Positions 3,673 to 44,336 of a stretch of DNA of 64,000 nucleotides are shown piece after piece. Position 1 is the first letter of the stretch. Every line of letters begins with the position of its first letter. Location of the stretch: the NCBI GenBank assembly GCA_040758155.1, contig JBFLWB010000144.1:5481-69480 (forward strand), read 5' to 3'. Made by a program: the position numbers and the translations under genes. The stretch comes from Thermodesulfobacteriota bacterium (GTDB lineage: Bacteria > Desulfobacterota > Deferrimicrobia > Deferrimicrobiales > Deferrimicrobiaceae). The notes beneath the pieces are model-generated. The model searched no databases. It was given only the letters and a program-made list of their open reading frames with translations, and was not told the DNA's origin.

Positions 3673-4068
3673 TTGGGATCCGAGGGGAAGCGAAAAGTCC
3701 TGTTGATGGACGACGAGGAAATGGTGAGGTCGGTCGTCGGAGAAATGCTGAAGATGTTCGGTCACGAGGTGGAGTTCGCCAGGGACGGTAAGGAAGCCAT
3801 CGACCTGTACGTGAAGGCGAAGGAATCCGACCAGCCCTTCTCCGCGGTGATCGTCGACCTGAACGTCCCCGGCGGGATGGGGGGGAGGGAGGCCGTGGAG
3901 GAGCTCCGCAGGATCGACTCCGGCCTGAAAGCCGTCGTCTCCAGCGGTCATTCGAGCGACCCCGTCGTGACGAACTACCGGGAATACGGCTTCGACGCCG
4001 TGATCTCCAAGCCGTTCCGCGTCTCGGATCTCGGCGACACCCTGCGGATGCTGGATTGCGGGCCCTGA
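3673..4068 (+). CDS. Stand-alone response regulator receiver (CheY-like) protein
   Basis: REC-domain hallmarks are present: LLMDDEE acidic pocket, phospho-acceptor Asp in VIVDLNVPGGMGG, and SSGHS ... KPF. Confidence 0.85.
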   Translation: MGSEGKRKVLLMDDEEMVRSVVGEMLKMFGHEVEFARDGKEAIDLYVKAKESDQPFSAVIVDLNVPGGMGGREAVEELRRIDSGLKAVVSSGHSSDPVVTNYREYGFDAVISKPFRVSDLGDTLRMLDCGP

Positions 4069-7633: not shown

Positions 7634-8617
7634 TCACACGTGGTTGCGCAGCATCAGCTCGACGGGGTGGGGATGGAGGAAAACCTGCCGCTCCAGGTAG
7701 GGGACCCTGTACTTGCGGACGTAATGGTTGATCAGCGTGACGGGGACGATCAGCGGGATCATGCGGTTCCTGTACCGATCGACCACCTCGAGCAGCTCCT
7801 GCTTCTCTTCGTGCATCAGGAGCACCCGGAGATGCCCCATCATGTGGACGAGCACGTCGGCGCACCTGGCGGGGGTGGCGCGCTGCGCCAGCGCCTCCAT
7901 CAGGAGCCGCTGGTAGCGTTCGTAGAGCTCGTCCGGAGGGAGATCCTTCGAGCGGCCCACGAGTTGCCCCATCTCGGTGTACCGCGTCCTCCCGTGGGCG
8001 AGGATCAGCATCTTGTGGTCGGTGTGGAACCCCGCGAGGTTCCCCCGGGACTTTCCCCTGCGAAGCGACTCGCGGAACCGGCGCAGGGTGAACATGCGCT
8101 CGATGAACATCTCCCGGAGGATCGGGTCCTGGAGCCGGCCTTCCTCCTCCACCGGGATCAGCGGGAAATGCTCCATGAACGCCTTCGTGAACAGCCCCGC
8201 GCCCACCTTGGCCGGGACTCCGTCCGCGCCGAACACCTTGACGCGCTCCATCCCCGAGGTCGGCGAGTCCTTCTTGCAGATGTAGCCGCTCAGGTCGGAC
8301 TCCTCGAGGTTCCGCAGCTTCTTCCGGCCGTAGGACAGCATCAGGTCGGTGAAATCCGTACCCGTCCCCGCCCCGACAAGCCGGGGGGCGTCCGGGTTCC
8401 CCTTCAGGCGCATGGCCTCCCTCGGGACCGGGAAGCCGCACTCCACTTCAGGGCACACGGGGACGAATTCCACGAACCGGCCCAGCGTCTCCGTGAGGAA
8501 GGGATCCCTCTTGTGACTGCCGTCGTAACGGACCTTCTCGCCCAGCAGGCAGGAGCTGATCAGGATCCGGATCGGCCCGCCCGGGGGATCCCTGCGCGAA
8601 GTCTCTTCGGTTTCCAT
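7634..8617 (-). CDS. DUF523 (2-thiouracil desulfurase-like) plus DUF1722 protein, YbgA family
   Basis: The N-terminal ILISSCLLGEKVRYDGSHK motif typical of DUF523/YbgA is followed by a DUF1722-like helical C-terminal half. Confidence 0.8.
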   Translation of the reverse strand: METEETSRRDPPGGPIRILISSCLLGEKVRYDGSHKRDPFLTETLGRFVEFVPVCPEVECGFPVPREAMRLKGNPDAPRLVGAGTGTDFTDLMLSYGRKKLRNLEESDLSGYICKKDSPTSGMERVKVFGADGVPAKVGAGLFTKAFMEHFPLIPVEEEGRLQDPILREMFIERMFTLRRFRESLRRGKSRGNLAGFHTDHKMLILAHGRTRYTEMGQLVGRSKDLPPDELYERYQRLLMEALAQRATPARCADVLVHMMGHLRVLLMHEEKQELLEVVDRYRNRMIPLIVPVTLINHYVRKYRVPYLERQVFLHPHPVELMLRNHV

Positions 8618-8690
8618 TTAGTGCATTATAAACAACGATTCCCGCGTTGGTGTATTCTCTTATAATTTGGTTGACCGAGGAGGGCTTGGC

Positions 8691-9995
8691 ATGTCCGGAA
8701 CCGGACCGATCCTGATCGTCGACGACGAAGCGAGCATCCGGCAGTCGCTGGAAGGCGTCCTGGCCGACGAGGGATATTCCTGCATCCTGGCGGGGGACGG
8801 GGCCGAGGCGATAGCGCGGCTCCGGGATTCGCGGCCGGCGCTCGTGCTTCTCGATATCTGGATGCCGGGCATGGACGGCCTCGAGACGTTGCGCCGGATC
8901 AAGGAGGAGAGCCCCCGCACCCCCGTCGTCATGATGAGCGGGCACGCGACGATCTCGACCGCGATCCGCGCCACGAAGGACGGCGCCGCCGATTTCATCG
9001 AGAAGCCGCTGGAGATCGAGACGGTGCTGAACGCCATCCGCCGCGCGCTCGGGTCCGGCGAGGGCGCGGCGGAAGCGGGCGGGGGAGAGGCCTCCGTGCC
9101 GGCCGGCCTTCACGATGCAGCCGAGCTTCCCGAGCTGAAGACCGTGGTGTTCGCGAAGCAGGCGCTTCCCGGCGACCGGATGCCGCAGAGGACGCTCGCC
9201 CGCGGGGCGGTGATGTACGGGCAGGGGCTCCACTCGGGGAAGAAGAGCGGGCTGATCTTCGAGCCGCTCGGGCCCGGATCCGGGATCCATTTCGCCGGCG
9301 TCTCGGACAACCGGCCGATCCCGGCGCACATCGATTTCGTCGGGTCGACCGGATGGGCCACGACGATCCGCCTCGGGACCACCCAGGCGGCCACCATCGA
9401 GCACGTCATGTCCGCGCTGAACGCGTACGGGATCTCCAACCTGCTCGTCAAGTGCGACGGGGAGGTTCCGGTCCTGGACGGCTCCGCCGTCGAGATCTGC
9501 AACCTGATCGAGGAAGTCGGAATGGTGGAGCAGAAGGGGGACTGGCGGCGGATCGCGCTTTCGGAGCCGATCCAGGTCGATTCGGGGAAGGCGTCGATCC
9601 GGCTGGAGCCGTTCGACGGGTTCGAGATCGATTACACGCTCGAGTACCCCGCGCCCGTCGGGAAGCAGCGCTTCGTATTCCGCCTCGGCGACCCGTCGGA
9701 CTTCCGCAGGGAGATCGCCCCGGCCCGGACCTTCGGATTCGCCAGGGACATCGGCGCGCTGCAGAAGCAGGGACTTGCGCTGGGAGGCCGCTTCGACAAC
9801 TTCGTCCTGTTCGGGGACGAGGGGCCGATCAACGGAGCGCTCCGGTTTCCGGACGAGCCCGTCCGCCACAAGATCCTCGACGCGTTCGGCGACTTCTACC
9901 TCCTCGGGCGGCGCCTCCAGGCGAGGGTGATCGCCCGCATGACGGGGCATTCGCACAACATCGCCCTGCTGAAGAAGGTCCGCGAGCTGATGTGA
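8691..9995 (+). CDS. Response-regulator receiver domain fused to an LpxC-type deacetylase domain (REC-LpxC)
   Basis: The N-terminal REC (ILIVDDEASIR, VLLDIWMPGMDG, VVMMSGH, FIEKPL) is followed by a full LpxC fold that aligns with E. coli LpxC (RTLARGAVMYGQGLHSGKKSGLIFEP, TIEHVMSALNAYGISNLLVKCDGEVPVLDGSA, ARTFGFARDIGALQKQGLALGGRFDNFVLF, VRHKILDAFGDFYLLG, MTGHSHNIALLKKV). Zinc-ligand and catalytic positions are conserved. A GAGGAGGG ribosome-binding site lies 7 nt upstream of the ATG at 8691. Confidence 0.85.
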   Translation: MSGTGPILIVDDEASIRQSLEGVLADEGYSCILAGDGAEAIARLRDSRPALVLLDIWMPGMDGLETLRRIKEESPRTPVVMMSGHATISTAIRATKDGAADFIEKPLEIETVLNAIRRALGSGEGAAEAGGGEASVPAGLHDAAELPELKTVVFAKQALPGDRMPQRTLARGAVMYGQGLHSGKKSGLIFEPLGPGSGIHFAGVSDNRPIPAHIDFVGSTGWATTIRLGTTQAATIEHVMSALNAYGISNLLVKCDGEVPVLDGSAVEICNLIEEVGMVEQKGDWRRIALSEPIQVDSGKASIRLEPFDGFEIDYTLEYPAPVGKQRFVFRLGDPSDFRREIAPARTFGFARDIGALQKQGLALGGRFDNFVLFGDEGPINGALRFPDEPVRHKILDAFGDFYLLGRRLQARVIARMTGHSHNIALLKKVRELM

Positions 9996-10024
9996 CCATC
10001 AGAATACCTACCGGAGAGACAGCC

Positions 10025-11056
10025 ATGCGAACGAGAACGCCGATTCACCTCTTCCTCGCGGCCCTTGCGGCCGGAATCCTCTGCGCGCCCGTACCCGCCT
10101 CCGCCGCCGCGGACGCGCCGATCAAGCTCACCTACGCCAACTTCCCGCCCGCCCCCACCTTCCCCTGCGTGCAGATGGAGCACTGGGCGCGGGAGGTGGA
10201 GAAGCGGACCGCGGGGAAGGTGAAGGTCCAGACCTTCCCGGGCGGGACGCTTCTCCCCGCGAAGAACATCCTGGACGGCGTCATATCCGGCCTCGCCGAC
10301 ATCGGGAACTTCGCCATGAGCTACCAACCGGGCCGGTTTCCCTTGTCCGAGGCCATCGACCTCCCGCTGGGGTTCACGAGCTCCCGGGTCGCCAGCCTGA
10401 CGCTTTACGACCTCATGGAGAAATACAAGCCGAAGGAATTCGACCAGGTGAAGATCCTGGCGCTCTTCACCTGCCCCCCGACCAACTTCATGACCCGGAC
10501 CCCCGTGAAATCGCTCGCCGACCTCAAGGGGATGGAGCTCCGGGTGGCGGGGACCTCCGCGGAGATCGTCAAGCGGCTCGGCGGGATCCCGGTCGCCATG
10601 CCGCAGTCCGAGACCCCCGAGGCGATCCAGAAGGGGGTGGTGAAGGGGATCGTCTCCTCCATGGAGATCCTCCAGGACTTCAAGTTCGCGGCCTATACGC
10701 CCAACGCCACCGTCGCCAACCTGCCCGTGGTCTCCTTCGCGGTCGTGATGAACAAGCAGAAGTGGGACTCTCTGCCGGCCGACGTGAAAAAGGTCCTGGA
10801 CGACATGCGGCGGGAACACTCCCTTTGGACCGGGAACTACGTCGACGGCCACGTGGAGGAGGCGCTGGGCTGGTCGAAGAAGAGCTACGGGCTCCAGGTC
10901 CACACCCTTCCCGCGAGCGAGGCCGAGACCGTGAAGGGGCTGCTCCGGCCGCTGACCGAAGATTACATCAAGCGGGTTACCGCCCTCGGCCTGCCCGGCG
11001 ATCAGATCGTCGCCGACGCGCTGGCGCTGAAGAAGAAGCACGAGCTGCAGAAATAG
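10025..11056 (+). CDS. dctP: TRAP transporter substrate-binding subunit (DctP family)
   Basis: A signal peptide is followed by DctP-family solute-binding features (LTYANFPPAPTFPCVQMEHWAREVEKRTAGKVKVQTFPGGTL ... GMELRVAG). The gene is an internal-start portion of ORF 9353..11056. Confidence 0.85.
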   Translation: MRTRTPIHLFLAALAAGILCAPVPASAAADAPIKLTYANFPPAPTFPCVQMEHWAREVEKRTAGKVKVQTFPGGTLLPAKNILDGVISGLADIGNFAMSYQPGRFPLSEAIDLPLGFTSSRVASLTLYDLMEKYKPKEFDQVKILALFTCPPTNFMTRTPVKSLADLKGMELRVAGTSAEIVKRLGGIPVAMPQSETPEAIQKGVVKGIVSSMEILQDFKFAAYTPNATVANLPVVSFAVVMNKQKWDSLPADVKKVLDDMRREHSLWTGNYVDGHVEEALGWSKKSYGLQVHTLPASEAETVKGLLRPLTEDYIKRVTALGLPGDQIVADALALKKKHELQK

Positions 11057-11066
11057 CGGATCCGCA

Positions 11067-11552
11067 ATGGGACTGGAAAGGCTGACGGAGCTGCTCCGGC
11101 GGGGGCTGATGTACCTCGCCGGAGCAGCGCTGCTGGGGGTCACGCTGCTGGCGACGGCCAACGTCGTCCTGCGGATCTTCCGGGTCCCCGTGGGCGGCGC
11201 CTACGAGGTCGTCTCCTTCCTCGGGGCGCTCGTCACGGCCGGCGCGCTCGGCTACACCCAGAAGCGCAGGCACCACATCGTGGTGGACATCCTCTCGGAC
11301 CGGTATCCTCCCGCGCTCAAGCGCGTCGTCGACCGGGTAAGCCAAGCCGCCATGCTCCTCCTGTTCGCCGTCGTCTCCTGGCAGACGGCGGCCTACGGGG
11401 TGCGGCTGATCCGGGTGGGGGAGCTCTCGGAGACGCTGAAGTTCCCGTTCCACCCCTTCGTGTTCCTCGTCGCCCTGGGTTTCGCCGTCCTCGCGCTGAC
11501 GATCTTCCTCGATCTCGTGGAGTCCTTCTGGGCAGAGGAGGAGAAGCGTTGA
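11067..11552 (+). CDS. dctQ: TRAP transporter small permease (DctQ family)
   Basis: A 161-aa protein with four predicted TM segments, sized and placed between DctP and DctM. Confidence 0.8.
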   Translation: MGLERLTELLRRGLMYLAGAALLGVTLLATANVVLRIFRVPVGGAYEVVSFLGALVTAGALGYTQKRRHHIVVDILSDRYPPALKRVVDRVSQAAMLLLFAVVSWQTAAYGVRLIRVGELSETLKFPFHPFVFLVALGFAVLALTIFLDLVESFWAEEEKR

Positions 11553-12853
11553 GCGGTCCCGCCATCGGCCTGCTGGGGATCGGGGCGATGTTCCTCATCC
11601 TGTTCCTCCTGCGCATCCCCGCGGCATTCACCATGATGCTCGTGGGCTCCGCGGGGATCGCCCTGATGACCTCGTTCGACGCGGCGTGCGCGATCGTAGG
11701 GACGGAGATGTGGAACATCTTCTCGAACTACGGGCTGACGGTGATCCCGCTGTTCATCCTGGTGGGGGAGATCGTCCACTACGCCGGCTACAACTTCAGC
11801 GTCTACGACGCGACGTACAAATGGTTCGGGCACTTCCGGGGCGGGCTCGCCATGACCACGATCATGGCATCGGCGGCCTTCTCGGCCATCTCGGGGTCCA
11901 ACACGGCGACGGCGGCCACGATGAGCGCGGTCGCGATCCCCGCGATGAAGGAGTACAAGTACCACCCGCTGCTCAACGCCGGCGCGGTCTCCGCGGGCGC
12001 GACGCTCGGCGTCCTGATCCCGCCCTCGCTCGTCCTCGTCGTGTACGGGCTCTACACGGGGCAGTCCATCGGGAAGCTGTTCTTCGGCAACATCATCCCC
12101 AGCGTCATCTTGACGCTGGCCATCCTCGGCACGGTGGTTTGGATCTGCCGCATCCATCCCGACTGGGGCGCGGCGGGGCCGCGGTTCGGATGGAAGGAGC
12201 GGCTGAAGGCGCTGCCGGAGGCGGCCGACATCCTCGTCCTCTTCGGGATCATCATGTACGCGATGTTCACCGGGGTCGTCACCGCGACGGAGGCGGCCGC
12301 CGTGAGCTGCTTCCTCGGATATGCGATATGCCTTGCGAGACGCAAACTTACATGGAAGAAGTTCATCGATTCCATGAAGGACACCCTGCGGATCTCCTGC
12401 ATGGTCTTCATGATCGTGGCGGGCGCGGTGGTCTTCGCGCGCTTCCTGACGCTGACCCGCCTGCCGTTCGAGATCGCGGAGTGGATCGGAACGCTCGCCC
12501 TCCCCCGGTGGATGGTCCTGTGGGTGATCCTCGGATGCTACATCCTGGGCGGCTGCGTCATGGACGCCCTTGCGTTCCTCCTCGTGTCGCTGCCGATCTT
12601 CTACCCGCTGGTCGTCCAGCTCGGCTACGACCCGATCTGGTTCGGGCAGGCGGTGACGATCGTCACCACGATGGGCGCCATCATGCCTCCCATCGGGATC
12701 TGCTGCTACGTCGTCTCCGGGATGTCCGGCATACCGTTATCGACCGTCTTCCGCGGCTCCTTCTACTATTTCCCCGCCTACATCGTCTCCATCGTCATCC
12801 TCATGATCTCCCCGTACTGGACGGTGCTCGTGCTGTCCGACATGGTGCGGTGA
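11549..12853 (+). CDS. dctM: TRAP transporter large permease (DctM family)
   Basis: A 434-aa polytopic membrane protein of DctM type (LFILVGEIVHYAGY, GSNTATAATMSAVAIPAMKE). Its start overlaps the dctQ stop. Confidence 0.85.
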   Translation: MSGPAIGLLGIGAMFLILFLLRIPAAFTMMLVGSAGIALMTSFDAACAIVGTEMWNIFSNYGLTVIPLFILVGEIVHYAGYNFSVYDATYKWFGHFRGGLAMTTIMASAAFSAISGSNTATAATMSAVAIPAMKEYKYHPLLNAGAVSAGATLGVLIPPSLVLVVYGLYTGQSIGKLFFGNIIPSVILTLAILGTVVWICRIHPDWGAAGPRFGWKERLKALPEAADILVLFGIIMYAMFTGVVTATEAAAVSCFLGYAICLARRKLTWKKFIDSMKDTLRISCMVFMIVAGAVVFARFLTLTRLPFEIAEWIGTLALPRWMVLWVILGCYILGGCVMDALAFLLVSLPIFYPLVVQLGYDPIWFGQAVTIVTTMGAIMPPIGICCYVVSGMSGIPLSTVFRGSFYYFPAYIVSIVILMISPYWTVLVLSDMVR

Positions 12854-12870
12854 CGGGAGTACGCGGCTCC

Positions 12871-14703
12871 ATGAACCGTCCGATGCTCATGCTGGGAAAC
12901 GAAGCGATCGCGCTCGCGCTGATCGAGAACGGCTGCCGGGTCGCCGCGTCGTACCCGGGGACGCCCGCATCCGAGATCCTCTCCGCCGTGGCGAAGCTGC
13001 GCAACGATCGCGGGATCCCGATGCACGCGGAATGGTCGGTGAACGAGAAGGTCGCCTTCGAGATCGCCTACACCGCGAGCGTCGCGGGGCTGCGCGCGGC
13101 GGCGGGCATGAAGCAGGTGGGGCTGAACGTGGCGTCCGACCCGCTGATGAGCGCCGTCTACTCGGGCGTGAAGGGCGGCTTCCTCGTCATCTCCGCGGAC
13201 GACCCCGGTCCGCACTCCTCACAGACCGAGCAGGACAGCCGGCTCATGGCGATGGTCGCCAAGCTCCCCGTGCTCGACCCCGATTCCCCCGCCCATGCCC
13301 GGGATCTGGTGGCGCTCGGGTATGAGCTGTCGGAAAAGTTCGAGATCCCCGTGATGCTCCGCCCCACGACGCGTGTGTGCCACGCGTGCCAGGACATCCT
13401 GCCCGGCGATTCCGTTCCTCCGGCGGGAGAGGCCGATTTCCGGAAATCTCCCTCCCGCTGGGCGGCCACGCCGGTCTTCCGCAACCTGCTTCACAAAGAG
13501 CTGACCACGAAGCTGGCAGAGATCGCCGGGTGGGCGCCGACCGCTCCGATCCGATGGAATCCGGACGCGTCGGGGACGCGAGCCGTTGTCGCCTCCGGCG
13601 TCGCCGCGGCCCACGCTCGGGAGGTCCTGGAAGGGCTCGGGCTGTGGGGGAGCGTGCCCTTTTACCAGGTGCTCCAGCCGTTTCCTCTGCATGCCGACTT
13701 CGTGTCCCACGTCCTTGGAAGCTACGGGGAGATCCTCGTGCTCGAGGAGACGGCAGCGGTCATCGAGATGCAGCTTCTCGACCGGGGGCGCGTCAGGGGG
13801 AAGGCGACCGGCGCTGTGCCCGAGGCGGGGGAGCTGCTGCCGGAGGAGATCGAGCGCATCGTCTCGGAGTTCGCCGGGATCGGGGCGGGAAAACCCGCGG
13901 AGAGGGGTGCGCCTCCGCCGGGCCGCCGTCCCACCCTGTGCGCGGGATGCCCGCACCGCGCGAGCTTCTACGCGATCCGGCGCGCCGCCCCCAACGGGAT
14001 CTACCCGAGCGACATCGGCTGCTACACGCTGGGGCTGAACCTGGGGGCGGTCGACACGGTCCTGTGCATGGGTGCGGCGGTCGGCCAGGCAGCGGGCTTT
14101 TACCAGGCATACCGGCTCGGCGGGAAGACGGTCGACATCGTCGCGACGATCGGCGACTCCACCTTCTTCCACGCGGGGATCCCCGGGCTGATCGACGCGG
14201 CGGTACAGAAGGCGAAGTTCGTCCTCGTGATCCTCGACAACGCGATGGCGGCCATGACGGGAGCGCAGCCCACGCCGGCTACCGGGTGCGGGGCGATGGG
14301 CGAGCCGACCGGTATCGTCGACATGGAGGCGCTCGTCCGCGCCTGCGGCGCCGGCTTCTGCAAGGTGGGAACGCCGTCCCGGTTCGACGAGTTCGTCGCC
14401 CTCCTCAAGGAGGCGCTCGCGTACAGCCGCGAGAACGGCCCGGCCGTGGTGATCGCCCGGGAGCCGTGCGTGATGTCGCTTGGGGGGAAGGCGCGAGCGG
14501 ATGCCCCGAAGGCGGTCGTCACCGACGCGTGCGCCGGCTGCCGGCACTGCGTAGACCGGTACGAGTGCCCGGCGATCGTCTTCGACGAGGATGGGAAGCG
14601 CGCCTGCATCGACGGGTTCCACTGCGCGGGCTGCGGCGTCTGCCTGCACGTCTGCCCCCTGGGCGCGATCCGCGCCGGCGGCGGGGAAGGGGGGGCGCCG
14701 TGA
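12871..14703 (+). CDS. iorA: Indolepyruvate:ferredoxin oxidoreductase alpha subunit (IorA)
   Basis: N-terminus MLMLGNEAIALALIENGCRVAASYPGTPASEIL, a TPP-binding region (GCYTLG, IGDSTFFHAG) and a C-terminal 2x[4Fe-4S] ferredoxin domain (CAGCRHCVDRYECP ... CAGCGVCLHVCP). Confidence 0.9.
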   Translation: MNRPMLMLGNEAIALALIENGCRVAASYPGTPASEILSAVAKLRNDRGIPMHAEWSVNEKVAFEIAYTASVAGLRAAAGMKQVGLNVASDPLMSAVYSGVKGGFLVISADDPGPHSSQTEQDSRLMAMVAKLPVLDPDSPAHARDLVALGYELSEKFEIPVMLRPTTRVCHACQDILPGDSVPPAGEADFRKSPSRWAATPVFRNLLHKELTTKLAEIAGWAPTAPIRWNPDASGTRAVVASGVAAAHAREVLEGLGLWGSVPFYQVLQPFPLHADFVSHVLGSYGEILVLEETAAVIEMQLLDRGRVRGKATGAVPEAGELLPEEIERIVSEFAGIGAGKPAERGAPPPGRRPTLCAGCPHRASFYAIRRAAPNGIYPSDIGCYTLGLNLGAVDTVLCMGAAVGQAAGFYQAYRLGGKTVDIVATIGDSTFFHAGIPGLIDAAVQKAKFVLVILDNAMAAMTGAQPTPATGCGAMGEPTGIVDMEALVRACGAGFCKVGTPSRFDEFVALLKEALAYSRENGPAVVIAREPCVMSLGGKARADAPKAVVTDACAGCRHCVDRYECPAIVFDEDGKRACIDGFHCAGCGVCLHVCPLGAIRAGGGEGGAP

Positions 14704-15284
14704 ACGGGCGCGCGGTGCGGGGCGGGGATGTCCGTCAGCAGATCCTCGTCAGCGGCGTGGGGGGGCAGGGGGTGCTCTTCGTTTCCCGGCTCCTGGCCGA
14801 GGCGGCCATCTGCCGCGGGATGAGCGTCCTGACGTCCGAGATCCACGGCATGGCGCAGCGGGGCGGGACGGTGGTGTCCCACGTGAAGGTGGGCGGCTTC
14901 CCGGGTCCCCTGATCCGCGAGGGGAAGGCCGACGGCATCGTCGTGCTCCGGGAGGAGAACCTTCCCGCCCACCGGCGCTTCCTGTCTCCTTCCGGGTGGG
15001 CCGCGGTGAATTCCACGGCCCCGGGGGCGGCTCCCCCCGATCCCCGCGTCCTTTTCGTCGACGCCGGGGGGATCGCGGTGAAGGCGGGGATGCCGAAAGG
15101 GATCAACCTGGTCCTGATCGGGTATCTTCTCGCGCGGCTCGATTCCGCGGGAGAGGGGGGGCGGATCTTCTGCGAACCGGAAGACATCCGGGAGGCGCTG
15201 GGCGCCCGCTTCGCGCGGAATCCCCGCGTCCTAGAGGAGTCCCTGGCGGCGTTCGCGCTGGGAATACGTCACGGTAGGGAATGA
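14700..15284 (+). CDS. iorB: Indolepyruvate:ferredoxin oxidoreductase beta subunit (IorB)
   Basis: A GTG start overlaps the iorA stop. Contains ILVSGVGGQGVLFVSRLLAEAA, the typical IorB/gamma-like CoA-binding Rossmann motif. Confidence 0.8.
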   Translation: MNGRAVRGGDVRQQILVSGVGGQGVLFVSRLLAEAAICRGMSVLTSEIHGMAQRGGTVVSHVKVGGFPGPLIREGKADGIVVLREENLPAHRRFLSPSGWAAVNSTAPGAAPPDPRVLFVDAGGIAVKAGMPKGINLVLIGYLLARLDSAGEGGRIFCEPEDIREALGARFARNPRVLEESLAAFALGIRHGRE

Positions 15285-16588
15285 GGTATCAAGCCATGCT
15301 CAAAAGATTCCCCCCGAAATACTCATCCGTCGACGCGCTTCCCGGCTACCAGCTCCGGGGGCTCCAATGGACGGTGTCGCACGCCTTCCGGCACTCCCCC
15401 TTCTACCGCCAGCGCCTCGAAGCGGCGGGGGTGACGCCCGGAGACATCCGCTCGCTCGACGACATCCGGCGGCTCCCCTTCACGACGGCGGACGACCTGA
15501 GGGAGGGGTACCCGCTGCCGCTTTTGTCGGTCGATCCGAAGGAGATCGTGCGGATCCATTCCTCCTCGGGGACCACGGGGAAGCGGAAGGTCCTTTGCTA
15601 CACGCAGAAAGACGTCTCCGACTGGGGCTGCATGTTCGCCCGCTGCTTCGAGATGGCGGGGCTCACGCAGGAGGACCGTGTTCAGATCTGCGTGGGGTAC
15701 GGGCTCTGGACGGCCGGGGCGGGCTTCCAGGCGGGAGTGGAGAAGTTCGGCGCGATGGCCATCCCCGTGGGGCCGGGGAACCTCGACCTGCAGTGCACCT
15801 TCCTGCTCGATCTGCGGTCGACCGTCCTCTGCTGCACCGCCTCCATGGGGCTGCTGCTGGCGGAGGAGGTGCACCGGCGGGGGATCCGCGGCCTGCTCAA
15901 ACTGAAGAAGGTCATCCTCGGGGCGGAGCGGACCAGCGACGCGATGATCGCGACGATCAAGGCGCTGCTGGGCGTCCGGGAGGTGTACGACATCCCGGGG
16001 CTCACGGAGCTGTACGGCCCCGGGACGGGACTGTCGTGCCGCCACGAGTCGGGGATCCACTACTGGGCCGACTACTACATCCTCGAGCTGCTCGACCCGG
16101 AAACGCTGGAGCCGGTCAAGCCCGGCGAGATCGGGGAGATGGTGTTCACCACGCTCGGCAAGGAAGGGTCGCCCCTCATCCGGTACCGGTCGCGCGACCT
16201 GACGCGGACGGTCGAGGGCGTCTGCCAGTGCGGCTGCATCCTGCCGCGGCACGACAAGATCCTCGGCCGCTCCGACGACATGATCGTCTTCCGGGGAGTC
16301 AACGTGTATCCCGGGCAGCTCGACGAGGTGCTCTCAAGGATCGACGGGGCCGGAAGCGAGTTCCAGGCGCACATCGAGCGGCGGGAGGACGGGAAGGACT
16401 ACATGACCATCAAGGTGGAGCGGGGGGCCCACATGGGCGAGGGCGCCGACGGCCCCATCGCCTCCGCGATCGCCGGGGAGATCAAGCACAACCTGATGGT
16501 ATCGTGCAACGTGCAGGTCGTCCCGTACGGGTCGCTCCCGAGGTCCGAGAAGAAGACCCGGAGGGTGTTCGACAGCCGCGTGTTCTGA
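15281..16588 (+). CDS. paaK: Phenylacetate-CoA ligase (PaaK) / coenzyme F390 synthetase family
   Basis: Shows the SSGTTGKRKV AMP-binding motif, PaaK-like length (about 435 aa) and a C-terminal domain (GVNVYPGQLDEVL). The ATG overlaps the iorB stop; an alternative start is at 15296. Confidence 0.85.
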   Translation: MRYQAMLKRFPPKYSSVDALPGYQLRGLQWTVSHAFRHSPFYRQRLEAAGVTPGDIRSLDDIRRLPFTTADDLREGYPLPLLSVDPKEIVRIHSSSGTTGKRKVLCYTQKDVSDWGCMFARCFEMAGLTQEDRVQICVGYGLWTAGAGFQAGVEKFGAMAIPVGPGNLDLQCTFLLDLRSTVLCCTASMGLLLAEEVHRRGIRGLLKLKKVILGAERTSDAMIATIKALLGVREVYDIPGLTELYGPGTGLSCRHESGIHYWADYYILELLDPETLEPVKPGEIGEMVFTTLGKEGSPLIRYRSRDLTRTVEGVCQCGCILPRHDKILGRSDDMIVFRGVNVYPGQLDEVLSRIDGAGSEFQAHIERREDGKDYMTIKVERGAHMGEGADGPIASAIAGEIKHNLMVSCNVQVVPYGSLPRSEKKTRRVFDSRVF

Positions 16589-16616
16589 GGGGGCATCCGC
16601 GCTCCGGAGGCGGACT

Positions 16617-17171
16617 TTACGGTTTCGAGACGAACGGATTCCCTCTGATGTAGAACCGCAGGAGCCGGCCGGCCCAACGGCGGCCGGCGTAGTCGACGCC
16701 GACCCGGGGCCTCTTCACGATCGCGGCGGGGGAGGCGCCGGGCTCCTCCGCGATGAAAAAACCGTCGCCCGTCAGGTCGTGCGCGTTCAGGCGCCGGTCG
16801 ATCCCCATCGCCTTGCACAACCGGCCCGGCCCGTTCGTGGCGGCGTCGACGTTCGCCACCGGTTCGAGGGCGCGCAGCAATACGGCCGAGGCGTGCCCTT
16901 CGCCCTCCGTGACCACGTTCATGCAATGGTACATGCCGTACACAAGGTAGATGTACGCGTGTCCCGGCGGCCCGAACATGACCCGGGTCCGCCCCGTCAT
17001 CCCCTTCGACGAATGGCAGGCGAGGTCGTGCGGCCCGACGTACGCCTCGACCTCCACGATCCGCGCGACCCGGTCCTTTCCGTCAACGTTGTGGACGAGC
17101 AGCTTCCCGAGCAGCTCCTGGGCGACTTCCACGGTGTTCCTGTCGTAGAAGGAGCGGGGGAGCTTCTTCAC
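16617..17171 (-). CDS. DNA-3-methyladenine glycosylase (Mpg/AAG family)
   Basis: A 184-aa protein with a GTG start overlapping the upstream activase stop by 4 bp. Carries the family pattern AQELLGKLLVH...ARIVEVEAYVGPHDLACHS...GHAYIYLVYGMYHCMNVV. Confidence 0.8.
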   Translation of the reverse strand: MKKLPRSFYDRNTVEVAQELLGKLLVHNVDGKDRVARIVEVEAYVGPHDLACHSSKGMTGRTRVMFGPPGHAYIYLVYGMYHCMNVVTEGEGHASAVLLRALEPVANVDAATNGPGRLCKAMGIDRRLNAHDLTGDGFFIAEEPGASPAAIVKRPRVGVDYAGRRWAGRLLRFYIRGNPFVSKP

Positions 17172-17950
17172 GTCCGCGGAGCCTCCGCCTCCAGTGCCGA
17201 CAGCGCGGCGCCGAGGGCGCCGACGAGCTGCGGGTCGGGGACCACGGCAACAGGCGCGCCCAGCGCCTGCGACAGGGCGTCCACCATCGCCGGGTTCAGC
17301 GCGACGCCGCCGCTCATGAACACCCTGGCCCCCGCGGGGACCGGGCCGACCAGCGAAGCCACCCGGCTCGCAAGCGCCGCGTGCAGCCCCTTGACGATGT
17401 CCTCCACCGGCTCTCCGCGCGCGACAAGGGAGACGACTTCGCTCTCCGCGAAGACGGTGCAGGTGCTGGTCACAGGGACCGTGCGGGAGGCGCGCGCGAC
17501 GTATTGCGCCACCTCGCCCGGCGGCACCCGGAGCCGCGCCAGGACGACTTCCAGGAAGCGGCCGGTTCCGGCGGCGCACTTGTCGTTCATCGCGAAGTCG
17601 AGGACGGTTCCGCCCGGCCCGACGCGGACGACCTTCGTGTCCTGCCCGCCGACGTCCACCAGGATGCCGGGCTCCCGGGTCCGGAAGAAGGCGCCCCGGG
17701 CGTGGCAGGTGATCTCGGTGAGCGCCCGGGTTGCGGCGACGCGTCTGCGGCCGTAGCCCGTCGCGCCGACGGGAACCGCAGGAACGCCGCCTTCCGCGCC
17801 GAGGGAGGCGAGCGCCCGTGCCGCCTGCTCCTCGATGCGGGGGTCGGCCGGCTCGAGGAAGGAGGCGACGATCCGTCCTTCGCCGTCGATGGCGACCGCC
17901 TTGAAGGTCGTGCTGCCGGCGTCGACGCCGACGGATGCGGGAGCGCTCAT
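17168..17950 (-). CDS. CoA-substrate-specific enzyme activase (BadF/BadG/BcrA/BcrD-type ATPase, HgdC-like)
   Basis: Contains VGVDAGSTTFKAVAID and the diagnostic MNDKCAAGTGRFLE motif. The protein is 260 aa. Confidence 0.85.
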   Translation of the reverse strand: MSAPASVGVDAGSTTFKAVAIDGEGRIVASFLEPADPRIEEQAARALASLGAEGGVPAVPVGATGYGRRRVAATRALTEITCHARGAFFRTREPGILVDVGGQDTKVVRVGPGGTVLDFAMNDKCAAGTGRFLEVVLARLRVPPGEVAQYVARASRTVPVTSTCTVFAESEVVSLVARGEPVEDIVKGLHAALASRVASLVGPVPAGARVFMSGGVALNPAMVDALSQALGAPVAVVPDPQLVGALGAALSALEAEAPRT

Positions 17951-19272
17951 TCGAACCCCTCCATGAAGGCCTGCAGGCGGTGATCGGCCTGTTCCTCCGA
18001 CCAGGCGCGCGGATCCGCGTGGTCCGCCTCCAGCAGCAGCGCCCGGACCCCCGCCTCCGAGACGAGGCGTCTCTGGAGGTCCACCTGGCCGATCGAGTAC
18101 GGCTTGCACGAGCGGTCGCTGTGAAGGATCGCGCCGGCAGCGCCGTACTCCCGGCAAAGCCGCTTCATGAGGGCGAGCCGGTACGGAAGGTCCCGGTTGA
18201 GGAACACGTGCAGATAGGCGCGCGCCATGGAACCTTCGGGATCGGAGGGATCGACCAGGGCGCCGGCATCGGCCCAGGCGCTCGTGTAGGTGGAGCAGAC
18301 GATGTTGAACCCGTTTTCCGCAAGCCGGGTGGAAAGCTCGCGGAGCCGGAACCACACGGGCAGGTTGTCCCAGAGCAGTCGCACCCGCTCGTCCGCGATG
18401 CCGCCCACGCCGCGCGCGGCGCGGTCCTTCAGCTCGTCCCGGAGCATCCGGTAATAGCGGTTGCACTCGGCGGTGCCGCGGATGGCGACGATCGGGGCCA
18501 GGTGGAAGAACGCGTCGAACCCGGTCCATGGGGACGGCCTCGCCCGACCGGCCTCCAGGCACTCCCCCCAGAGCAGCGAGCCTTCGCGGGAGCGGCGCAG
18601 CGTTTCGGCCAGCGCTTCCCGGTCCAGCCTGCGGCGAGCGATCCGTTCCGCCGTCGCGGCGAGCTCCAGAAGCTGCTCCGCGACGTAGTCCAGGTGACGC
18701 GGCTTCGCCTCGCCGTACAGGAATGGGGCATCGATGACGACGAGTGGGACGCGGAAGCGGTCCGCGAGGGCTCGGTACCAGTAAAGGACCGTCTGGCAGA
18801 TGTTCGTGCAGCAGCAGAGCAGGTCGGGGCGGGGGAGGCGCCCCACGGGGGTCGTCCCCGTGACGGCGCAGCCGATGTCGGCGCGCGCGTAGCCGCAGAG
18901 GTCCCTCGAATAGCCGAGCCGCTCCACCGCCGCGGAAAGGTCCGGGACCATGCGCTTCACCGAGCAGATCGCGGCGTGGTTTTCAGGGTAGACCGTATGG
19001 AATCCGAGCGCCCGCAGAATCTCGACGGGGAAGCCGGAGGTGACCCAGGCGACCGGAACGGCGCCGTCGGCGTACCGGCCCGCAAGGTAATGGAGGGAGG
19101 TCAGCTCCTTCAGCTTGCGCGTGGATTCCAGGGGGGGGCCGAAGGGACCGGTCGGACGTGTCCTACCCTTGCGCCCCGCGCGCGCACGGATCCGCGAAAC
19201 CGCGGAGACCGCGGACAAGGCCGCTCCACCGTATCGCGCCAGTGCTTCATATTGAATCCTTCGTAATATCAA
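17947..19272 (-). CDS. 2-hydroxyacyl-CoA dehydratase / benzoyl-CoA reductase B-C family subunit (HgdA-like)
   Basis: A 441-aa protein with an N-terminal VAWVTSGFPVEILRALGFHTVYPENHAAI pattern and the conserved Cys spacing of the HgdAB/BcrBC family. Its stop overlaps the activase start. Confidence 0.7.
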   Translation of the reverse strand: MILRRIQYEALARYGGAALSAVSAVSRIRARAGRKGRTRPTGPFGPPLESTRKLKELTSLHYLAGRYADGAVPVAWVTSGFPVEILRALGFHTVYPENHAAICSVKRMVPDLSAAVERLGYSRDLCGYARADIGCAVTGTTPVGRLPRPDLLCCCTNICQTVLYWYRALADRFRVPLVVIDAPFLYGEAKPRHLDYVAEQLLELAATAERIARRRLDREALAETLRRSREGSLLWGECLEAGRARPSPWTGFDAFFHLAPIVAIRGTAECNRYYRMLRDELKDRAARGVGGIADERVRLLWDNLPVWFRLRELSTRLAENGFNIVCSTYTSAWADAGALVDPSDPEGSMARAYLHVFLNRDLPYRLALMKRLCREYGAAGAILHSDRSCKPYSIGQVDLQRRLVSEAGVRALLLEADHADPRAWSEEQADHRLQAFMEGFE

Positions 19273-20363
19273 TTTGATGGATACCTATATTTTAAGTTCT
19301 CCACGAATGCTTCCAGTCGGGTGGCTGCCTGTGCGGGCATCTCCTTTTCCAGCCCGGTTTCCAGCAGCAGCACAGGCGCGCCGAGACCGGCGAACCGCTG
19401 CAGGATCGCGGGGACGTCGAAGCTTTCAGGCTCGCAGAATTTCGGGATGTGAACGACAAGCCCCGCGGAACCCGACCGCCGATACAGCCCCTCCAGGTAA
19501 GCCATCCTGCGCACCAGGTCCGCAGAGCGGGTCGGGCAGGGAGGCAGCCGGAACGGAAGGACGGAAAGCCGGTCGAGCGGGTCCGCGTCCTCATCTTCCG
19601 AAGGAAGGGGGATTCGTCGCCCGATCGCGGCGTAATCGTCGGCGGCCACGTAGGCGCCCGCGGCGTCCAGAAGATCGAAGAGGGTCATGGGCTCCGGAAC
19701 ATAACCGGTGACCATCAGGGGGATCCCGCTCCTGCGGCGCCCTTCGCGGATCCCGCGCACGGCGTCCTCCAGCTCCGCGAGGTGATCTTCGGGCCAGAGA
19801 TATTCGCCCCGGCGGAGCAGGCGGTACAAAGCGCCGTCGTCCGTCTCGAGATATGCGCGCCGGGACAGCAGCGTCCCGCGTAGACGGTCGATCTTGGCTT
19901 GAAGCGCTATCGCCTCCCGGAGCCGGCCGGCATCCGGCGGTTTGCCGGTCAGGCGGGAAAGCTCCCCGGCCAGCGCCTCCAGCTCCGAGCGGACGAATTT
20001 CCTTGCGGAAGGGCGGTCCTCCCCCTTCGGGTGATGGTATCGGAACGCCGGCTTCTCCCAGCCGCCGAGGTCGGGGGCGAGGGTCGCCAGCCCCTGGAGG
20101 GCGTCGCAGGTGTGGGGGATCAGGAGCGCGTCCGCATCCTTCCCCCCGCCCGACGCGAGGAACGCGAGGGCGTTGCGCGCCACGGCGCATACGTAGCTCT
20201 GGATGCGCCCGGAATCCGGCCCGCGGGGAGGGCCGGGCGGGCCCCACAGCTCCACCGCGTGGACATCCATCGCGGTGAGCAGCTCCCGCGGGTAGAACAC
20301 CGGCAGGACGATCGCGGTCTTCCTGCCGAGTTCCTTCTGCCGGGCGATGACTTCAGTTCGCAT
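19269..20363 (-). CDS. 2-hydroxyacyl-CoA dehydratase / benzoyl-CoA reductase B-C family subunit (HgdB-like)
   Basis: A 364-aa protein with AIVLPVFYPRELLTAMDVHAVELWG and LIPHTCDALQG, patterns typical of this family. Translationally coupled to the downstream subunit. Confidence 0.7.
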   Translation of the reverse strand: MRTEVIARQKELGRKTAIVLPVFYPRELLTAMDVHAVELWGPPGPPRGPDSGRIQSYVCAVARNALAFLASGGGKDADALLIPHTCDALQGLATLAPDLGGWEKPAFRYHHPKGEDRPSARKFVRSELEALAGELSRLTGKPPDAGRLREAIALQAKIDRLRGTLLSRRAYLETDDGALYRLLRRGEYLWPEDHLAELEDAVRGIREGRRRSGIPLMVTGYVPEPMTLFDLLDAAGAYVAADDYAAIGRRIPLPSEDEDADPLDRLSVLPFRLPPCPTRSADLVRRMAYLEGLYRRSGSAGLVVHIPKFCEPESFDVPAILQRFAGLGAPVLLLETGLEKEMPAQAATRLEAFVENLKYRYPSN

Positions 20364-28737: not shown

Positions 28738-30747
28738 TCACATTATAGCAGATTGGTATCCTTTCGGCGGTTCGGGCTCCACGCCCCCGCCGCTGGCGAA
28801 CCGGGAGGCGATCTCCGCGAATTCGTCGCCCGCGGACAGGAACGCGTCGACCACGTCGGGATCGAAGTAGACCCCCTTGAGGCCGCGGATGATGGCGATC
28901 GCCTCCTCGTGGGAGATCGCGGGCTTGTACAGCCGCGGGCTGATGATGGCGTCGTAGGAGTCCGCCGCCGCCATCAGGCGGCCGGGGATGGGGATCGCGT
29001 CCCCCTTCAGCCCGCGCGGATAACCGGTTCCGTCCCACCGTTCGTGGTGGTTCAACGCGATCTCGTCGGCCACCTGGAGGAACGAATCCTCTCCCAGGAA
29101 GTTCCTTGCCAACCGGATCGTCTCCGAGCCGTACAGGGTGTGCTTCTTCATCTCCTCGAATTCCTCCACCGTGAGGCGGGCCGGCTTGAGGAGGATGTGG
29201 TCGGGGACGCCGACCTTCCCGATATCGTGCAGCGGGGCGAGGCGGAACAGCAGGTCGATCGCGTCGTCGTCCAGGTAGGCGCGGAAGCGGGGGTGGTCCT
29301 TCAGGCGGAGCGCGAGCGTGCGCATGTAGTGACGGGTCCGCTGGATGTGCCCCCCGGTCTCGTGGTGCCGCGTTTCCGCAAGCGCGGCCAGGCTCTGGAT
29401 GACGGCGTCCTGCGTCAGCGACAGCTTCCGCGTCCGCTCCCGGACCTCCCGTTCGGTTTCGAGGTAGCGGATCGAGGTGAGCAGCGTGAAGACGGACCCG
29501 AGGGTGGCCGTCGGAACGAGCGGGGACAGGAACAGTTGGGAATGGGCGAGGAGCCACCAGGAGCCCGCCCAGACGCCGGCGGCGGCCGGCACGACGATCG
29601 CCAGGCTCCATGCGGCCGTCCCGCGGGCCAGGACGAGCGTCAGGAGGACGCCGACGAGGAGGACCAGCAGCGCCATGAGCCCGCGGATCCAGCGGGGGCT
29701 CGAGATCGGGTCGGATGCGATCAGGTTCTCGATGGCCGAGGCGTGGATCTCCACACCGGGCTGCGCGGCTTCGAGCGGCGTGGTCCGGATCTCGTGGAGC
29801 CCCGCCGAGGTCGTTCCCACGAGGACCACTTTCCCGCGGAGCGCGGCCGCGTCCGCGGTTCCGTCCAGCAGGGAGGCCGCCGGGATGTGGGGGAACGCGC
29901 GGCGGCTGCCGCGGTAGTTCACGAGGAGGTTGCCGCGCGGGTCGAGGGGGATCCTGTTCCCCCCGAGAAGGATGGACTCGATCCCTCCCGCCCCCGCTTC
30001 GAGGACGACGTCGCCGCCCAGCGTCTTCCGGTAGACGGCCAGGGCGAGGCTCGGGTAATACGCGTCCCGGTGCCGGATCACCAGGGGGACGCGCCGGACC
30101 ACGCCGTCCGAGTCGGGGGTGACGTTGAAGAAACCGGAAGAGGCCGCCGCCCGCGCCAGCACGGGGAGGTTGCAGACGACTCCCATGGCATCGAAGAGGT
30201 TCGCCGGCCCGGCCGCGTCCTTCGCGGACCGGACCGCGGCGGGAAGCGGGTGCAGGACGCAGCGCTCGCCGCGGGGGGCGTCGAAATCGAACTGGTAGCC
30301 GAGGACGAAGGGACCCCGCGCCAGCACGGCCGCGAGGGTCCGGTCGGAATCGAGGGCTTCGACGGGCATCCCTTCCAGGGAGATGCCGACGCCGAGGTCG
30401 CGGCGGATCTCGCCGGAAAGGGACGCAAGCGAGGTGCGGTCGGGTTCCGCGAAGAGCATGTCGAGCCCCACGGCGGAGGCTCCAGCGCGCCGGATCTCCT
30501 CGAGGAGCCGCGCGACGCGGTAGCGGGGCCAGGGCCATTGGCCGTAAGCGGCGATGCTGGCCTCGTCGAGGTCCACGATCGCCACGGAGCCCGAAACGGG
30601 GCTCCGCGGCGCGGACCGGAGGAAGGAGTCGTAGATCTTGCCGTCCAGGTACAGGAAGAGCTGCGGCGGCCAGACGCTCAGGGCGGCCATCGCAAGGGTC
30701 AGGAGGAAGCCGACGACCAGAATGGGAAGGGAGCGGTTACCGGTCAT
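28738..30747 (-). CDS. CHASE2 sensor domain-containing HD-GYP phosphodiesterase
   Basis: An N-terminal TM helix and a periplasmic CHASE2 domain (VAIVDLDEASIAAYGQWPWPR) are followed by 3 TM segments and a C-terminal HD-GYP domain (HDIGKVGVPDHILLKP ... HHERWDGTGYPRGL). Confidence 0.85.
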   Translation of the reverse strand: MTGNRSLPILVVGFLLTLAMAALSVWPPQLFLYLDGKIYDSFLRSAPRSPVSGSVAIVDLDEASIAAYGQWPWPRYRVARLLEEIRRAGASAVGLDMLFAEPDRTSLASLSGEIRRDLGVGISLEGMPVEALDSDRTLAAVLARGPFVLGYQFDFDAPRGERCVLHPLPAAVRSAKDAAGPANLFDAMGVVCNLPVLARAAASSGFFNVTPDSDGVVRRVPLVIRHRDAYYPSLALAVYRKTLGGDVVLEAGAGGIESILLGGNRIPLDPRGNLLVNYRGSRRAFPHIPAASLLDGTADAAALRGKVVLVGTTSAGLHEIRTTPLEAAQPGVEIHASAIENLIASDPISSPRWIRGLMALLVLLVGVLLTLVLARGTAAWSLAIVVPAAAGVWAGSWWLLAHSQLFLSPLVPTATLGSVFTLLTSIRYLETEREVRERTRKLSLTQDAVIQSLAALAETRHHETGGHIQRTRHYMRTLALRLKDHPRFRAYLDDDAIDLLFRLAPLHDIGKVGVPDHILLKPARLTVEEFEEMKKHTLYGSETIRLARNFLGEDSFLQVADEIALNHHERWDGTGYPRGLKGDAIPIPGRLMAAADSYDAIISPRLYKPAISHEEAIAIIRGLKGVYFDPDVVDAFLSAGDEFAEIASRFASGGGVEPEPPKGYQSAIM

Positions 30748-30753
30748 GCCCGC

Positions 30754-31419
30754 CTATCGGATCGTCACTTCGACGCGGCGGTTCCGGGGCTCGGAGACCT
30801 GGTCGCCGGTGGGGATCAGGGGGTTGTCCTTTCCGTGCGAAGTGATCTCCAGGATGGATTCCTCCACGCCTGCGGCGACAAGCAGGTCGGCCACGGTCTG
30901 TGCCCGCTTGCGGGAGAGCTTGTAGTTGTACTGCCGGTCCCCCACGGTGTCCGTGTGTCCGACGACGCTGATGTCCACCGGGGCCATCGCCTTGATCGTC
31001 CGCACGACCTGGAGCATCAGCCCCCTGGACGGACCGGTGAGCGTCGCGGTCCCGTGCTCGAAATGGAGGATGAACTGCTTCGGCGGCGGCGGAAGCGCGT
31101 TGAGCGCGGCTCCCGCGATGGACGCCACCTCGTTGTCCTGCATGATGAACGGGGCGCCGGGGGCGGAGTTCTCCCCGACGACCACCGCCTGCCGGGTTTC
31201 CGAGAGCACGAGGTCCTTCCCGCCGCCGGACACGACGATGGCGCCGGTCTTCCCCGACGCGTCGGGAAGGAGAACGATCGTGTCCGGAGTCCGGGAAGGC
31301 AGGGTGGGCGGCGCCGAAGCGCATCCGGGGACGACAGTGATGGCGAACAGGCATGCGGCGAGGAGGCGGAAGCTCCGCGCCCTTGGGAGCATTTCCGCGC
31401 TGCCGCCCGCGCGCGTCAT
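30754..31419 (-). CDS. OmpA-family (peptidoglycan-binding) lipoprotein
   Basis: The C-terminal OmpA-like domain VVGHTDTVGDRQYNYKLSRKRAQTVADLLVAAG...NRRVEVTI follows a signal peptide. Its ATG overlaps the upstream FecR-like stop (ATGA). A 6-nt gap separates it from the CHASE2 gene. Confidence 0.85.
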   Translation of the reverse strand: MTRAGGSAEMLPRARSFRLLAACLFAITVVPGCASAPPTLPSRTPDTIVLLPDASGKTGAIVVSGGGKDLVLSETRQAVVVGENSAPGAPFIMQDNEVASIAGAALNALPPPPKQFILHFEHGTATLTGPSRGLMLQVVRTIKAMAPVDISVVGHTDTVGDRQYNYKLSRKRAQTVADLLVAAGVEESILEITSHGKDNPLIPTGDQVSEPRNRRVEVTIR

Positions 31420-31892: not shown

Positions 31893-31924
31893 GATTTCCT
31901 TATCGGAACGGTTTCCCGTCGTCT

Positions 31925-39721: not shown

Positions 39722-39763
39722 CCTATAAATATAACCCGGATCCGTTCCGGCAAGGAGGGGCCC

Positions 39764-44298: not shown

Positions 44299-44336
44299 GC
44301 GCTTGCGAATGAACAAACGATCCGTCAGGAGACGAT

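Follow-up and report, generated by a model that had tools for sequence, protein, structure and literature searches.

An NtrX-type receiver fused to a complete LpxC domain in a Deferrimicrobiaceae genome, and the broad bacterial family to which it belongs

The stretch of DNA analysed here, hereafter the window, comprises 64,000 nucleotides of contig JBFLWB010000144.1 from a bacterium of the Deferrimicrobiaceae, and genomic context was inspected within these 64 kb. It contains a gene that joins a response-regulator receiver domain (REC), a variable linker and an LpxC domain in one 434-aa protein. The product is probably a genuine LpxC whose activity or stability would be set by phosphorylation of an NtrX-derived receiver, judging from sequence comparisons. 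An earlier note on this DNA, made from the letters and their open reading frames (ORFs), had offered two options, a phosphorylation-gated lipid A deacetylase and an LpxC-fold amidase serving a neighbouring pathway; the former is favoured here, with the enzymatic and receiver sites found intact and phosphorylation as its presumptive part. The features of the gene are the following.

8691..9995, plus strand: the entire REC-LpxC gene, 434 codons plus stop
8677..8684, plus strand: ribosome-binding site (RBS) GAGGAGGG, 6 nt 5' of the ATG, read directly from the sequence
8709..9041, plus strand: REC domain of NtrX type, aa 7-117 (PF00072, NtrX model, PDB match, alignments)
9051..9128, plus strand: variable Gly/Ala/Glu-rich linker, aa 121-146 (predicted disorder; low identity to relatives)
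9129..9185, plus strand: semi-conserved stretch ahead of the canonical LpxC start, aa 147-165, PELKTVVFAKQALPGDRMP (alignments)
9186..9980, plus strand: complete LpxC domain, aa 166-430 (PF03331, TIGR00325, P. aeruginosa LpxC alignment, model superposition)

Translation of the ORF gave 434 aa free of internal stops, and the Pfam analysis recovered both halves that the earlier note had described, each over a nearly complete profile: Response_reg (PF00072) at aa 7-117 (E 2.4e-31, profile positions 1-111 of 111) and LpxC (PF03331) at aa 166-430 (E 1e-79, 268.3 bits against a cutoff of 27, profile positions 1-266 of 268). At such E-values a chance match can be discounted. The protein thus consists of a complete REC, a variable linker and a complete LpxC; no AAA+ or Fis-type helix-turn-helix (HTH) domain was detected in it with Pfam. 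NCBI holds an identical protein from a Thermodesulfobacteriota metagenome-assembled genome (MAG). Among 5.8 billion proteins there were 7,849 matches at E<=1e-10, and the best 120 of these all carry REC and LpxC in about 434 aa with 73-100% identity, several of them named Candidatus Deferrimicrobium. The fusion is therefore not an assembly or frameshift artefact, and no stop or frameshift separates the two halves. The strong RBS that had been proposed is present at 8677-8684, within an AT-rich divergent intergenic region of 73 nt (8618-8690) that also contains a TATAAT hexamer at 8661-8666; a consensus scan covering these 73 nt gave no complete sigma-70 promoter.

The C-terminal half has the attributes of the enzyme that catalyses the committed step of outer-membrane lipid A synthesis. 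It passes the cutoff of the NCBIfam equivalog model for lpxC (TIGR00325, 208.9 bits against 187.25), and the LpxC motifs quoted in the earlier note were all found, namely TIEHV (aa 235-239), HKILDAFGD (aa 393-401) and GHSHN (aa 419-423), along with ARTFGF (aa 345-350). In the alignment with P. aeruginosa LpxC, the zinc ligands (His79, His238 and Asp242 in E. coli numbering) are matched by H238, H393 and D397, and the catalytic Glu78, His265, Thr191, Lys239 and Asp246 by E237, H420, T347, K394 and D401 (E237/H238 are encoded at 9399-9404). These eight residues are invariant among 144 fused proteins, as well as in smaller alignments of 32 and 70 proteins, so that the zinc ligands and the HKxxD motif have not been lost. 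The closest solved structures are LpxC of P. aeruginosa, E. coli, Yersinia and Aquifex, in alignments that span the EH, ARTFGF, HKILDxxGD and GH segments.

Conservation beyond the active site was assessed with the 37 LpxC alignment columns in which 53 standalone LpxCs show at least 90% conservation. The window protein retains the standalone majority residue at all 37, and so does the majority of the fused clade (59 proteins), in which 32 of these columns again reach 90% conservation or more. A small number of positions are peculiar to the fused clade, such as K254, which is mostly Glu in the standalone enzymes. The LpxC half of the AlphaFold model superimposes on A. aeolicus LpxC in Foldseek with a TM-score of 0.95-0.96 and an rmsd of 1.2-1.3 A over about 271 columns. 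Its fold, zinc ligands, catalytic Glu, His, Thr, Asp and Lys and conserved columns are thus those of the standalone LpxCs of E. coli, P. aeruginosa and A. aeolicus, from which the protein differs by its N-terminal receiver and linker. The C-terminus lies only 4 residues past the LpxC domain and lacks the E. coli-type tail; the compact Aquifex LpxC is the nearest both in size and in the missing tail. These data suggest that the product is a UDP-3-O-acyl-GlcNAc deacetylase capable of catalysis, in agreement with the intact site claimed earlier.

LpxC is also naturally fused to another domain in the bifunctional LpxC/FabZ proteins (PRK13188). In these, a metabolic enzyme is attached C-terminally, whereas here a signalling domain is attached N-terminally, and only the LpxC part of that model is matched (177.7 bits against a cutoff of 465, model positions 4-219), which excludes membership of the FabZ fusion group.

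The receiver half contains the canonical residues reported in the earlier note, namely the acidic pair D11/D12, the phospho-acceptor D55 (codon 8853-8855), S83 and K105, accompanied by the NtrX-like W57 and S83-G84-H85. Among the 144 fused proteins, which come from about seven lineages, D11, D12, D55, W57, G84, H85 and K105 are invariant; S83 is invariant in the 32- and 70-protein alignments (A1 and A2) and reaches 90% conservation or more in the 144-protein one (A3). The predicted model shows the (beta-alpha)5 pattern, with five beta-alpha units. The top NCBIfam response-regulator model was NtrX (NF051870, E 5.8e-37, through its REC portion only), and the top solved structures were those of Brucella abortus NtrX (4d6x and 5m7n, E 3.5e-28), which shares the alpha-1 motif, the DIW after the phospho-Asp strand and the SGH. 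The alpha-1 pattern, IRxxLxGVLxDEG[YH], is common to Brucella NtrX, to Clade A and to the Binatia-like group described below. The receiver probably descends from an NtrX-type response regulator. Since the AAA+ and HTH domains are absent, the protein is regarded as NtrX-derived and not as a member of the NtrX family; unlike NtrX, it has an enzyme as output and, lacking the AAA+ and DNA-binding domains, cannot be a transcription factor.

The architecture is that of a large, old and common family, found widely among uncultured bacteria and shared by thousands of proteins in the databases. An HMMER search of 1.84 billion cluster representatives yielded many 50%-identity clusters of full-length REC-LpxC proteins, with identities down to 34%, as well as related proteins of 650-736 aa. 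Three architectures were assigned with Pfam and local domain mapping. The first comprises REC, a sigma-54-type AAA+ domain, in many cases a Fis-type HTH, and LpxC (for example P0127, with AAA+ and HTH); the second, REC-HTH-LpxC, was found in two clusters (for example P0139, with HTH); and the third is the REC-LpxC form of the window. The long forms are named NtrX in JGI and resemble it in their NtrX-like REC, an AAA+ without GAFTGA and a Fis-type HTH. Current annotation as plain LpxC or NtrX conceals the fusion.

A scan of one genome per GTDB species gave 80 loci, each from a different genome, which were grouped by domain mapping and labels into Clade A (33 loci, Deferrimicrobiaceae-like, REC-LpxC), Clade B (13 loci, Bdellovibrionota and Oligoflexia plus one Dadabacteria, REC-LpxC) and Clade C (34 loci, Desulfomonilaceae-like, REC-AAA+-LpxC). 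Further lineages, identified by source name, were Nitrospinota (REC-HTH-LpxC), Spirochaetota (including a closed 2.68-Mb genome) and Binatia. The fusion thus spans Deferrimicrobia, Bdellovibrionota, Binatia, Spirochaetota, Dadabacteria, Nitrospinota and Desulfomonilia, and all 70 full-length proteins from the loci match both Pfam families.

Seven relatives that appeared to consist of LpxC only were rejected as such. In L022, L052, L054, L055 and L080, a REC or REC-AAA+ lies just upstream in another frame, indicating frameshifted assemblies, and L028 and L078 are cut by contig ends. The five split-frame cases are MAGs, mostly long-read 'MFD' assemblies, in which automatic annotation would wrongly give a standalone LpxC beside a truncated regulator.

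In a neighbor-joining (NJ) tree of LpxC domains, the 59 fused sequences formed one clade with respect to the 53 best-scoring standalone LpxCs (bootstrap 150/200), which answers the question of divergence that the earlier note had raised: the fused domains group apart from their closest standalone counterparts. The identity of the two domains to the window protein declines in step (REC/LpxC 77/80%, 58/65% and 50/49% in the three clades). REC-only forms are interspersed among REC-AAA+-HTH forms in the tree. In the Clade C AAA+, Walker A persists, the GAFTGA loop, Walker B acids and arginine-finger region are gone, and a low-complexity linker stands in place of the HTH. The simplest reading, based on these comparisons, would be a single old fusion of an NtrX/NtrC-type regulator with LpxC, in which the ATPase and DNA-binding parts repeatedly decayed and were lost and both REC and LpxC were retained. 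The ancestor, an NtrX-like protein of the form REC-AAA+-HTH, would have become joined to LpxC, and several lineages, the window's included, would subsequently have lost the AAA+ and DNA-binding parts, giving REC-linker-LpxC.

The Clade C proteins (L044-L081), for example that encoded at L057:4693-6816, are REC-AAA+-LpxC proteins of about 710 aa, without HTH, in which the Walker B Asp-Glu is now Val/Ile-Arg. The AAA+ of this clade resembles a decaying ATPase retained between two conserved domains.

The linker is the variable part of the protein, with 11-20% identity to relatives versus 49-80% for REC and LpxC. The AlphaFold model, for which the 144 fused sequences served as input alignment, had a mean predicted local distance difference test (pLDDT) of 87.6 and a predicted TM-score (pTM) of 0.80, with pLDDT below 50 at aa 124-146; an earlier model from 32 close homologues, too shallow an alignment, had a pLDDT of 50.5 and left the LpxC half unresolved. 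In the semi-conserved stretch that follows the linker, F154, the last residue of a conserved VVF (aa 152-154), is at least 90% conserved, and aa 160-163 are modelled as a strand running into the LpxC fold. A pTM of about 0.62 would be expected, by our own arithmetic, for a 270-residue LpxC and a 120-residue REC placed independently; the higher value therefore implies a defined contact between the domains in the predicted structure.

Taken with the disordered linker and the intact phosphorylation site, the predicted contact leads us to propose intramolecular gating by the receiver, for which CheB would be the nearest analogy. In CheB, the receiver blocks the active site of the enzyme until it is phosphorylated. 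Like CheB and the receiver-enzyme regulators PleD/WspR and RpfG, the window protein has an N-terminal REC, a flexible linker, a C-terminal hydrolase and a predicted intramolecular contact; it differs from them in its output domain, which serves an essential biosynthetic pathway instead of signalling or chemotaxis. The receiver, phosphorylated or unphosphorylated and packed on the LpxC domain, would alter LpxC activity or stability, phosphorylation-dependent stability being the alternative to CheB-like gating.

The same predicted contact could also carry a signal the other way. The LpxC domain might report substrate or product occupancy to the receiver; the protein would then serve as a phosphate sink or 'trigger enzyme' through which lipid A precursor levels tune an NtrY-dependent pathway. 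The long relatives that retain a DNA-binding HTH beside LpxC fit such an enzyme-regulator hybrid. However, LpxC is the sole output of the window protein, and many clades without the DNA-binding part keep REC and a catalytically intact LpxC, which makes reverse flow very improbable.

Gating by phosphorylation requires a histidine kinase that would act on D55; it would be of NtrY type where a partner is visible, and encoded at an unlinked site in the window's genome. Such a partner is visible in six Binatia-like loci, where a same-strand kinase of about 730-770 aa (HAMP, PAS, HisKA, HATPase_c) lies directly upstream of the fusion gene in all six and NtrY_N was detected in four. Their gene order is ruvCAB-(DUF2905)-ntrY-[REC-lpxC]; ntrY and the fusion gene overlap by 4 nt or are separated by no more than 33 nt. 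With ntrY immediately upstream, the REC-LpxC gene occupies the usual position of ntrX.

Orphan receivers and pseudo-receivers are commonplace, and the receiver could instead be a relic of the fusion that has ceased to respond to signals and works as a phosphorylation-independent dimerisation or scaffolding module. A kinase is not nearby in this lineage, and decay does occur in the family, as in the degenerate AAA+ of the relatives that lost Walker B and the GAFTGA loop. Pseudo-receivers, however, usually lack the acidic pair, the phospho-acceptor or the Lys, and here D11, D12, D55 and K105 are invariant across about seven lineages, with S83 conserved at 90% or more. Moreover, REC is conserved to the same degree as the enzyme, and the coupling to ntrY was found in 6/6 Binatia-like loci. 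We therefore regard an inert receiver as improbable.

Several points weigh against phosphorylation-dependent gating of a genuine LpxC. Searches with Pfam and tblastn found no histidine kinase in the window, and no kinase adjoins the gene in most Deferrimicrobia relatives. The pTM value is the single line of evidence for interdomain contact; in a covariation analysis (mutual information with average product correction) of 339 fused sequences, with an effective number of 96, clade-specific positions dominated and no usable interdomain contact signal was obtained. Bootstrap support for monophyly of the fused clade is moderate (75%), and four short 'standalone' sequences, which may be fragments, fall inside it. 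Support for the family comes from sequence and predicted structure. Finally, a second canonical lpxC may exist outside the inspected 64 kb, and other lipid A genes are not nearby: Pfam detected no other lpx genes in the window, and neither Pfam nor tblastn detected a second LpxC there.

This last point belongs to the main rival, in which the fusion would be an auxiliary, conditionally active second LpxC that adds capacity under certain signals while a canonical standalone lpxC elsewhere does the housekeeping. The separation of the fused LpxCs from the standalone ones as a clade, and clade-specific positions such as K254, would fit this possibility. On the other hand, the lpxC equivalog cutoff is passed, a single copy was found in each of the 80 species-representative genomes (with motifs taken from the fused domain, so that distant paralogues would be missed), and the gene shows a stable, core-gene-like housekeeping synteny within each clade (thiL-thiE-gene-mpg, infB-rbfA-truB-purA-gene, or ruvCAB-ntrY-gene). 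An auxiliary role thus seems unlikely, and the fused protein may well be the working LpxC of the cell.

The neighbourhood bears on the second option of the earlier note, in which the LpxC fold would hydrolyse another N-acyl compound, taken up by a TRAP transporter and processed by IorAB and PaaK. Two features of the window are relevant here.

10025..16588, plus strand: cassette of DctP, DctQ and DctM (TRAP transporter), IorA, IorB and a PaaK-like ligase (Pfam), context and not part of the feature
16617..17171, minus strand: mpg, on the far side of the cassette from the fusion gene

The gene content downstream (TRAP transport and aryl-acid genes) and its tight packing were as described in that note: the cassette genes are separated by -4 to 29 nt, and the fusion gene, which heads this co-directional cluster, lies 29 nt from dctP. 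No terminator is predicted between them; no promoter-like sites were found in 8300-17300 and terminator-like sites there occur at chance level, which is uninformative on co-transcription with dctP.

This arrangement is not conserved. Of the 33 Clade A species, 10 have mpg, on the opposite strand, as the next downstream gene, seven have a PBP-like gene, four have DctP and 11 another gene; IorA/PaaK lie upstream of the fusion gene in two species (L015 and L021) and kilobases off in others. The commonest frame in Clade A is thiL-thiE-[gene]-mpg, and the cassette of the window sits between the gene and mpg. In other clades the neighbours are wholly different: infB-rbfA-nrnA-truB-purA-[gene] in Bdellovibrionota, sucCD ... 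[gene] ... acs, uvrA in Desulfomonilia, and rpmE-[gene]-SMC-like in Spirochaetota. A stable housekeeping frame within each clade fits a core gene under vertical inheritance and does not fit a pathway-specific amidase. The link to TRAP transport and to indolepyruvate and phenylacetate metabolism is local synteny and not a conserved partnership. With all the LpxC-conserved columns (37/37) and the equivalog score retained, recruitment to another N-acyl compound is unsupported, and we rejected it as highly unlikely.

The cassette itself changes position, from 10025-16588 in the window to 5.7 kb downstream of the gene in L003 (L003:11331-21296) and upstream of it in L015 and L021, suggesting that DctPQM-IorAB-PaaK is a mobile or rearranging metabolic block here. 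Next to mpg, two genes for the D component of 2-hydroxyacyl-CoA dehydratase are found on the minus strand (17168-20363), with an overlapping ORF that matches the position of a BcrAD/BadFG activator in locus L001; these genes could be part of the cassette's aromatic or aryl-acid metabolism.

LpxC is the point at which outer-membrane lipid A synthesis is controlled, and a leading target for antibiotics; its regulation is an active question. The known controls act in trans and are lineage-specific, such as, in enterobacteria, FtsH/LapB/YejM proteolysis and, in Pseudomonas, MurA binding. A review from 2025 on the regulation of lipid A covers FtsH/LapB/YejM proteolysis, MurA binding, possibly Lon, Ght, and transcriptional control by NtrYX/ChvGI, and does not mention a signalling domain fused to LpxC (PMC12444477); none of the controls of standalone LpxC is of that kind (PMC12444477). 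No description of a REC-LpxC fusion, or of LpxC as an enzymatic output of response regulators, was found in the full-text literature, a search that left subscription journals and InterPro or census tables outside. The earlier note would have taken a common and already characterised architecture as a refutation; the architecture is common, and no sign of its characterisation was found in the literature.

NtrYX represses lpxC transcription in R. sphaeroides, where its deletion led to an 8.8-fold rise, and likewise in C. crescentus (PMC7240162; PMC12444477). Alphaproteobacterial NtrYX thus also acts on lpxC, via transcription (PMC7240162). In D. vulgaris, the DVU2931-2934 operon includes an NtrC-type regulator for which lpxC is the only mapped target, and in S. 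fumaroxidans lpxC adjoins the counterpart of this operon (PMC3333781). The NtrX-like REC and the adjacency to ntrY fit these published links of NtrYX and of an NtrC-family regulator with lpxC. A regulator of NtrX type that governed lpxC could thus have been fused to its own target and repeatedly have shed its ATPase and DNA-binding parts, so that control by an envelope or redox sensor of NtrY type shifted from the transcriptional to the post-translational level, a scenario that we give about an even chance.

If the favoured reading of a phosphorylation-controlled LpxC is true, the REC-fused enzyme would be a third control mechanism, present across several phyla and paired with NtrY in one. The signal would pass directly from a membrane sensor to the enzyme, which would place the committed step in making lipid A under direct two-component control. 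The evolutionary series would be that of a transcription factor joined to the enzyme it regulates and then reduced stepwise to its receiver, and it may explain the ties of NtrYX to lpxC and to envelope phenotypes in alphaproteobacteria.

Other observations concern possible signalling genes near the fusion. In seven of the 33 Deferrimicrobia-like species (L002:11374-15091, L016, L017, L018, L020, L023 and L064), a same-strand PBP_like_2 gene follows the fusion gene, and in six of these it is followed by a PAS-HisKA-HATPase kinase and a REC-sigma54 activator (no kinase match was found in L018). By its arrangement, this block recalls the DVU2931-2934 operon of D. vulgaris (PMC3333781). The window also encodes a single-domain orphan receiver of 131 aa (3673-4068), 26% identical to the REC of the fusion and found in the same relative position in locus L001.

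Two observations involve Lon-type domains. In the closed Spirochaetota genome AP019861.1 (L084:9015-9812), a 265-aa protein with a Lon substrate-binding domain (PF02190) is encoded directly upstream of REC-lpxC; it is missing from the second Spirochaetota locus, L086. Lon has been proposed as a protease that degrades LpxC in alphaproteobacteria. Farther along the window (39631-46802), the gene for a 1,555-aa DUF748/AsmA-like protein (outer-membrane lipid-transport type) lies 38 nt ahead of one for an LonC-like protease of 821 aa (AAA_32, LonB lid, Lon_C).

On the minus strand at 28738-32329, a 669-aa protein fuses a CHASE2 sensor to an HD-GYP-type HD_5 domain. Its gene lies downstream of genes for an OmpA-family, a FecR-domain and a DUF6982 protein in one co-directional block, and a second FecR-domain gene was found at 1024-1530.

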